DNA of 27,540 bases from a virus. Lineage: Duplodnaviria > Heunggongvirae > Uroviricota > Caudoviricetes. The notes under the pieces were generated by a model, which saw only the letters and a list, made by a program, of their open reading frames with translations, searched no databases and was not told the origin of the DNA. The stretch lies in the IMG/VR virus record IMGVR_UViG_2585427737_000003. One strand, 5' to 3'. Position 1 is the stretch's first letter; every line of letters starts with the position of its first letter. A program made the position numbers and the translations under genes. Below, one piece after another: positions 584 through 1,915 of the stretch.

Positions 584-1915
584 ATGATTATCAACCAAGT
601 ACCTATAAAAATAAAAATCTTCATCTTTTTATTTTCATGCATCTCTATTATATTTTTGTTACTGCATGAAAATAATGGAATATACATAACACAAACAACA
701 CAAATAAGTTATAGTGTTTTCATTATTGGGCTTTTTTTCATAAACCTGATGATTTTTATTTTTCTATTGCTTTACTATGTTTCTAATCAGAGACAAAGTT
801 ATCTCTTAATTCTTTCATTCGCGTTTTTGAGCAACACGTATTATTTATTAGAAGTGGCTATTATTTCTTTATCTCCGTTTGGTAACGATTTATCTACAAT
901 CTATCAGAAATCAAATGATATCGCAATATATTATCTATTCCGTCAGTTCAGCTTTATATCTATAATCTTTCTGGCTGTTTATTCCACCAATGTTAAAAAT
1001 AAAAGTGTTTTAGAAGATAAAAGAAACATAATAATTGTTGTTTTGTCAATATTAATTCTTTTTATTACTCCGTTTGTAGCAAAAAATCTAAGCAGTGACA
1101 ATATAAAATATAGTCTTAATATTATACAATACTCGCTGAATCGTCATTTGCCGACGTGGAATATCGTGTACACCAAAATAATATCAGTATTTTGGCTTGT
1201 ATTACTTATCAGCTCATGCATCAGCATACGTAATTACTCAAAAATATGGTTGTGTATAATACTTATTAGTATAGTGTCAGTATGCAATAATCTAATTTTA
1301 TTGTATTTTATTGATAAATCCCATCCTGCATGGTACATGACAAAATTTCTTGAATTGATATCAATGATTTATATCATTTCAACACTCATGTATTATGTTT
1401 TCAGGAAATTAAATCATGCTAATCATATGGCAATTCATGATCCACTAACGAATACATACAATAGAAGATACTTTATTGACTCATTGAAGAATATATCAAA
1501 ACACCATGATTTCTCAGTAATAATGTTAGATATTGACAGTTTCAAAAGCATCAATGACAAATGGGGGCATCATATGGGTGATCAAGTCATAGTAATGGTT
1601 ACCAGAATAATAAAAAAATCCATCAGGAAAGAGGATATATTAGGGCGCTTAGGCGGTGAGGAGTTCGGTATTATCATTAAAGGTAATACTCAAAAGCTCT
1701 TGCTATCAATTGCAGAGCGAATCAGAAAAAACATTGAAGAGCAATGCTCGGAAAAATTATTATCGCATGGACCTGAGAAAATAACTGTCAGTATTGGTTG
1801 CTTTACTTCAAAAGAGAATAATCTCAGCCCATCTGAAATGTTAGTCAATGCCGATAAAGCGTTATATCAAGCCAAAAGAACCGGAAAAAACAAGGTGATA
1901 ATTCACTCAAAATAA
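584..1915 (+). CDS. Membrane-anchored GGDEF-domain diguanylate cyclase (multi-pass hydrophobic N-terminal domain plus C-terminal GGDEF)
   Basis: 443 aa; N-terminal ~260 aa is rich in I/L/F hydrophobic segments; C-terminal domain carries the GGEEF active-site motif (nt 1652-1666) with an RKED (RxxD-type) motif five residues upstream (nt 1625-1636); gene is strongly AT-rich unlike the flanking DNA. Confidence 0.8.
   Translation: MIINQVPIKIKIFIFLFSCISIIFLLLHENNGIYITQTTQISYSVFIIGLFFINLMIFIFLLLYYVSNQRQSYLLILSFAFLSNTYYLLEVAIISLSPFGNDLSTIYQKSNDIAIYYLFRQFSFISIIFLAVYSTNVKNKSVLEDKRNIIIVVLSILILFITPFVAKNLSSDNIKYSLNIIQYSLNRHLPTWNIVYTKIISVFWLVLLISSCISIRNYSKIWLCIILISIVSVCNNLILLYFIDKSHPAWYMTKFLELISMIYIISTLMYYVFRKLNHANHMAIHDPLTNTYNRRYFIDSLKNISKHHDFSVIMLDIDSFKSINDKWGHHMGDQVIVMVTRIIKKSIRKEDILGRLGGEEFGIIIKGNTQKLLLSIAERIRKNIEEQCSEKLLSHGPEKITVSIGCFTSKENNLSPSEMLVNADKALYQAKRTGKNKVIIHSK

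Follow-up and report, generated by a model that had tools for sequence, protein, structure and literature searches.

The diguanylate cyclase gene dgcX was originally reported from the 2011 O104:H4 outbreak strain, and it was named in O104:H4, in EAEC 55989 and in the ETEC strains E24377A and H10407 by Richter et al. (2014, EMBO Mol Med; PMC4287979). The encoded protein was reported to possess a hydrophobic domain of about 270 aa at the N-terminus, an intact A-site and an I-site located five residues upstream, and the gene was located at lambda attB, beside lambdoid prophage DNA (PMC4287979). Its expression exceeded that of every other E. coli cyclase gene; the very high level comes from the gene's own RpoD/RpoS-dependent promoter and was obtained with a dgcX::lacZ reporter that spanned -412 to +18 (PMC4287979). 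Because dgcX is expressed so far above the other cyclase genes of E. coli, DgcX has been proposed to aid the strong adherence and biofilm formation of enteroaggregative and O104:H4 E. coli. Cimdins-Ahne et al. (2023; PMC10459773) described DgcX as a MASE4-GGDEF protein whose overexpression induces cellulose, and the induction was abolished in the GGEAF and GGAAF mutants at E359/E360 of a DgcX orthologue.

The MASE4-GGDEF architecture is also found in DgcT (YcdT) and CdgI (YeaI) of K-12. DgcT can be aligned with the protein studied here over residues 42-442, but it is only 37% identical and is encoded by a weakly expressed core-genome gene by pgaABCD, which is not prophage cargo (PMC4287979). 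The A-site of CdgI is degenerate (PMC4287979, PMC10459773).

The locus presented below can, with high confidence, be read as an intact, AT-rich dgcX cassette in the b region of a lambda-like prophage, in which an IS1 element 17 nt upstream of the gene has cut it off from the promoter region and has probably lowered expression. Apart from IS1, the locus is an ordinary and already described prophage cargo, and the sole unusual point is the presence of IS1 17 bases before the start codon.

Identity and domain architecture of the cyclase gene

The coding sequence occupies positions 584-1915 (+ strand) of the window, i.e., the whole stretch of 27,540 nucleotides that was analysed, and consists of 443 codons beginning with ATG and a stop codon. 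The strongly AT-rich composition estimated by eye in the original prediction (about 30% GC) was confirmed by calculation: the GC content of the gene is 0.297, compared with 0.546 for the IS1 part, 0.479 for the neighbouring tfa gene and 0.554 for the remaining window.

The comparison with the Pfam database revealed two domains. The MASE4 integral-membrane sensor domain (PF17158) covers residues 40-274 (701-1405, + strand; E 2.2e-36, 125.9 bits, cut-off 28.4), and the GGDEF catalytic domain (PF00990) covers residues 283-437 (1430-1894, + strand; E 3.5e-44, 150.9 bits, cut-off 23.8). The NCBIfam model TIGR00254 for GGDEF also matched the protein, with 161.9 bits against a cut-off of 37.4, while none of the NCBIfam equivalog models scored above its own cut-off with the 443-aa protein. 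According to the hydropathy profile, there are about seven to eight hydrophobic stretches, all of them within residues 1-273. The A-site GGEEF is formed by residues 357-361 (1652-1666, + strand), and the product-inhibition motif (I-site) RKED, which is the sole RxxD in the protein, by residues 348-351 (1625-1636, + strand), five residues N-terminal to GGEEF. The GGDEF domain can be aligned with solved cyclases, e.g., 6zxm and PleD 1w25 (E about 1e-24), and the motifs DPLTNTYNRR, LDIDSFKSIND, GHHMGD, GGEEF and ADKALYQAKRTGKN, characteristic of active cyclases, align with those of 6zxm, so that the substrate- and metal-binding motifs can be regarded as conserved. The family was assigned from the sequence alone and is unambiguous at that level. 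A membrane-anchored GGDEF cyclase with GGEEF and RKED motifs had been predicted from the letters, and both the domain scan, which was positive for GGDEF, and the motif positions agree with it.

The protein is identical over 443/443 residues to that of ETEC 602354 (annotated as WP_000586339.1), and it differs in two positions from the protein of E24377A (441/443) and in six from that of HUSEC2011, an O104:H4 strain (437/443). The numbering of GGEEF agrees with that of the E359A/E360A catalytic mutants (PMC10459773). As the protein is nearly identical to the one named DgcX in PMC4287979 and matches the mutant numbering of PMC10459773, the gene can be identified as dgcX, an accessory gene that E. 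coli gained by horizontal transfer and that is already known and partly characterised. Of the two identities put forward beforehand, DgcX was therefore the correct one, as the HUSEC2011 comparison shows, while DgcT is only a paralogue with 37% identity. At the nucleotide level, bases 567-2700 match several human ETEC genomes at 100%, and the gene region 567-1990 was found in 771 of the 5426 complete E. coli genomes, including HUSEC2011 and E24377A.

The gene shares with dgcX of the O104:H4, EAEC and ETEC strains the MASE4-GGDEF architecture, the GGEEF and RxxD motifs, tfa as a neighbour and a leader of 17 nt; in the published strains, unlike here, no IS1 lies 17 nt before the ATG and the adjacent promoter region is present. 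Truncation of the 5' end by IS1 was checked for and is absent, as the reading frame is of full length from an in-frame ATG. The possibility of a pseudogene or a 5'-truncated gene was rejected because the full-length frame is identical to annotated proteins.

A mechanism of DgcX action can be drawn from the family and from the published work on the orthologue. The multi-pass MASE4 domain would anchor the protein in the membrane and presumably sense some signal, while in the dimer the cytoplasmic GGDEF domains would condense two GTP molecules into c-di-GMP, a biofilm signal, at GGEEF. c-di-GMP at the RKED I-site would feed back and limit the output, and the product would raise cellulose and biofilm matrix, as in other strains. 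By analogy, we infer that the enzyme would also be active in this strain.

Position of dgcX within the prophage

On its downstream side dgcX adjoins tfa, stf and J of a lambda-like prophage, and on the other side of the gene the window contains IS1. The tail-fibre assembly gene tfa (1989-2573, - strand; 194 aa, Caudo_TAP E 1.2e-43) is the last late gene of the prophage and is convergent with dgcX; in the relatives it is annotated as tail fiber assembly protein. Among the 771 carrier genomes, tfa adjoins dgcX almost always. Between the two genes, at 1943-1979, there is a near-perfect inverted repeat with a 15-bp stem (-16 kcal/mol, z = -5.6), and none of 200 shuffled sequences folded as well. 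The terminator scan made no call at 1943-1979, where the repeat is without a T-run; the repeat may be a candidate two-way transcription stop.

The closest relatives of the prophage (99.2% identity over 25 kb) sit at attB beside ybhB. ybhB of E24377A is followed by the lambda att core GCTTTTTTATACTAA (11363-11377 of locus L001), and the 272 bp adjoining the core share 89% identity with the P arm of lambda. Beyond the P arm there follow 104 bp left over from the lambda b region, dgcX (12018-13349) and the convergent tfa and stf genes. The order of these elements identifies the E24377A junction, at the level of sequence, as attR (P-O-B'), with dgcX in place of lambda ea47/ea31/ea59. The b-region slot proposed for the gene is thus borne out in the relatives, where the gene is flanked by tfa on one side and by the P arm of attR on the other; the window itself shows the tfa side.

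As the att core and the P arm lie beyond dgcX in E24377A, the gene is situated inside the att-bounded prophage, and it would excise together with the phage, with no aberrant excision needed. The first proposal, in which dgcX was regarded as flanking DNA acquired by specialised transduction, appears less likely in view of this mapping, which puts the gene inside the prophage.

Lambda lom and bor are examples of lambdoid prophage morons. dgcX resembles lambda b-region genes and lambdoid morons in being a lone AT-rich gene with its own promoter region, placed between tfa and attR, and, like the morons, it is expressed from a prophage and alters a host trait. It differs from them in that the cargo is a c-di-GMP synthase and in that it is not carried by any sequenced free phage of INPHARED: the DNA search of the INPHARED free phages gave no dgcX match, and the protein search of free phages gave nothing closer than remote matches to GGDEF domains, with less than 60% identity and less than 80% of the protein covered in every case.

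A different arrangement was noticed in the genome CP126294.1 (L013), in which positions 2254-4667 have the order ybhB, dgcX, partial tfa and ybhC, with no further prophage genes. Judging from this gene order, the cyclase gene has outlived its prophage there.

The IS1 junction and its probable effect on dgcX expression

A complete IS1 is 768 bp long and is flanked by a target duplication of 8-9 bp. The first 566 bases of the window (1-566, + strand) correspond to the 3' part of the element, approximately IS1 positions 203-768, and are 98% identical over 566 nt to complete IS1 copies of strain VE-T9. The first base of the window thus lies inside IS1, at about position 203, and the element has the same orientation as dgcX. 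The reading frame at 48-551, in the insB frame, matches the Pfam family DDE_Tnp_IS1 (E 2.3e-78). The right terminal inverted repeat ATCAATAAGTTGGAGTCATTACC at 544-566 (+ strand) is an exact match to the 23-nt IRR, and the element ends with it, which agrees with the predicted distance of 17 bp between the right end of IS1 and the ATG.

Similarity to the dgcX-bearing genomes begins at position 567, directly after the end of IS1. The 17 nt that remain before the ATG (567-583, + strand) are the native dgcX leader CATTCTCAGGTGCGTAC, which is identical in E24377A, HUSEC2011 and 602354, and a Shine-Dalgarno-like AGGTG, read from the sequence, is retained at 574-578. At least 395 of the 412 upstream nucleotides of the published reporter fragment are separated from the gene by IS1. 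Among the displaced sequence is the best promoter-like site of the native upstream region, TTGACA-17-TAGTAT at -101 to -73, a candidate based on the match to the consensus. Among the 699 complete genomes matched by a probe running from the native promoter to the 5' part of the gene, 678 cover at least 80% of the probe length. The suggestion of a native promoter displaced by IS1 is supported, as 17 nt alone are left of the upstream part of the -412 to +18 reporter.

The junction between IS1 and dgcX was not found with megablast of bases 1-2700 against the 5426 complete E. coli genomes; the sole match of full coverage was joined from two pieces, with IS1 at the opposite side of a prophage remnant. 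An exact 38-mer of the junction was absent from the GTDB species representatives, and an exact 26-mer was absent from the JGI metagenome contigs. The junction is strain-specific or, less likely, an assembly join. Either IS1 entered as a simple insertion, which would put the native promoter another 0.8 kb upstream, or its edge marks a wider rearrangement mediated by the element. A simple insertion would leave the 9-bp direct repeat CATTCTCAG at the left end of IS1, followed by the native upstream sequence ending in TATATATATAT.

The promoter of IS1 is weak and is repressed by InsA, and insertions of the element are strongly polar whatever its orientation, through Rho-dependent termination inside it. 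The consensus scan of the + strand of bases 1-685 revealed no promoter-like site, so the idea that IS1 now drives the gene finds no support in the sequence. Since the junction offers no new promoter and the native region is cut off, dgcX would be transcribed only by polymerases that pass through IS1, starting at the weak promoter of the element or, if it still lies on the far side, at the displaced native promoter. Reduced, read-through-dependent expression of dgcX is the most likely outcome, and the drop would most likely be marked because IS1 is classically polar.

The alternative that survives best, though we regard it as unlikely, is that expression is largely preserved. It assumes a simple insertion into the leader, after which the native promoter, about 0.8 kb further upstream, would read through IS1. 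Such read-through would be helped by the common orientation of IS1 and dgcX, by the scan of bases 1-2100, in which no intrinsic terminator-like site was detected, and by the very high activity reported for the native dgcX promoter. However, the polarity of IS1 caused by Rho-dependent termination counts against it, and the sequence to the left of IS1 falls outside the window, so that the native promoter is only presumed to be there.

Activation of dgcX by IS1, through an outward-facing or hybrid promoter at the right end that would make expression constitutive and free of RpoD/RpoS control, appears improbable. Work by Prentki and colleagues in 1986 reportedly described functional promoters created by IS1 insertions. 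IS1-made functional promoters are reported, including one upstream of pgaA in strain 55989, and the ends of IS1 may carry outward-facing promoter elements, as described for the pgaA region of that strain (PMC4287979). In EAEC 55989, as here, an end of IS1 lies immediately upstream of a gene related to c-di-GMP or biofilm formation, but the resident -10 was kept there and is combined with a -35 from IS1, whereas in the case of dgcX IS1 ends 17 nt from the ATG and no -10-like sequence is available. The window does contain a -35-like TTGGAG at 553-558, 8 nt from the end of IS1. With a spacer of 16-18 nt, however, the -10 would fall at 575-582 and read GGTGCG, GTGCGT or TGCGTA, none of which is -10-like, and a transcript from this site would start no earlier than the ATG and be without the Shine-Dalgarno sequence. 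The hybrid promoter was rejected on the basis of the spacing and sequence of the possible -10, and the + strand scan of 1-685 likewise gave no site for IS1-driven transcription of dgcX.

Least probable of all is an artefact of assembly, in which a mis-join at a multicopy repeat would conceal a normal upstream region in the true genome. In its favour are the absence of the junction from the 5426 complete E. coli genomes, the GTDB species representatives and the JGI metagenome contigs and the small indel-bearing patches in stf and gpG relative to the closest relative. Against it, the junction coincides to the base with the end of the IS1 inverted repeat, as in true transposition, and IS1 insertions are common and strain-specific.

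Returning to the reading of an intact gene with lowered expression, dgcX cut off by IS1 offers a ready-made natural control for the effect of its high expression, which could address the c-di-GMP level, cellulose and curli, and motility. The IS1-dgcX allele, unseen in the 771 carrier genomes, could mark a lineage selected against a high prophage-borne c-di-GMP output.

Other changes in the prophage and relatives of dgcX

Three further genes of the prophage carry changes. The stf gene (within 2573-5974, - strand) contains an in-frame stop at 2855-2857, in a patch of about 70 bp (2855-2925) that has three 1-nt deletions and many mismatches compared with the closest relative; among complete E. 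coli genomes, none matches this patch above 88.5%. The frame upstream of the stop continues unchanged beyond it, and the fibre would lose its last approximately 93 residues. In the gene of the tail assembly chaperone gpG (15591-16011, - strand), two 1-nt deletions compared with ETEC 602354, at 15861 and 15890, leave two separate open reading frames (65 and 81 aa), and a 9-bp deletion is present at 18378 in the FI-like gene. Together, these changes suggest either a defective prophage or sequence errors in the assembly.

The cluster at 90% identity that includes the DgcX protein comprises 6087 member sequences. Full-length relatives in E. coli and E. albertii are 85, 83, 81, 80, 67, 52 and 51% identical, followed by Citrobacter proteins with 41-43% and DgcT-like proteins with about 37%. 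The GC content was about 30% in every variant checked. The scan of species representatives for close relatives found nothing beyond E. coli and a single short MAG contig, with no donor outside Escherichia, and neither the genome scan nor the protein search identified an AT-rich donor lineage.

The variant with 85% identity (L025-L027, 3417-6634) is located near torT, at the end of a prophage of the myovirus type with baseplate and sheath genes. It shares the upstream region, tfa and the C-terminus of stf with the locus described here, at approximately 90% nucleotide identity over 2.8 kb. As this variant travels with the same tfa module on a myovirus-type prophage, the comparison suggests that dgcX may have spread by the exchange of tail-fibre modules.

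Two MASE4-GGDEF relatives are 51% and 67% identical (L022, 4001-5341, and L019, 4001-5335, respectively). The 51% variant is situated at the end of the Rac prophage, adjoining uspF-ompN, while the 67% variant adjoins nfrA, with flanks of 4 kb without a called phage gene. A further E. coli protein, P0022, is annotated as DUF1722-containing; its 403 aa combine PF04463 and PF08349 with GGDEF. Its identity to DgcX reaches 97%, over 26% of the query, and it is probably a fusion reading frame generated by deletion.
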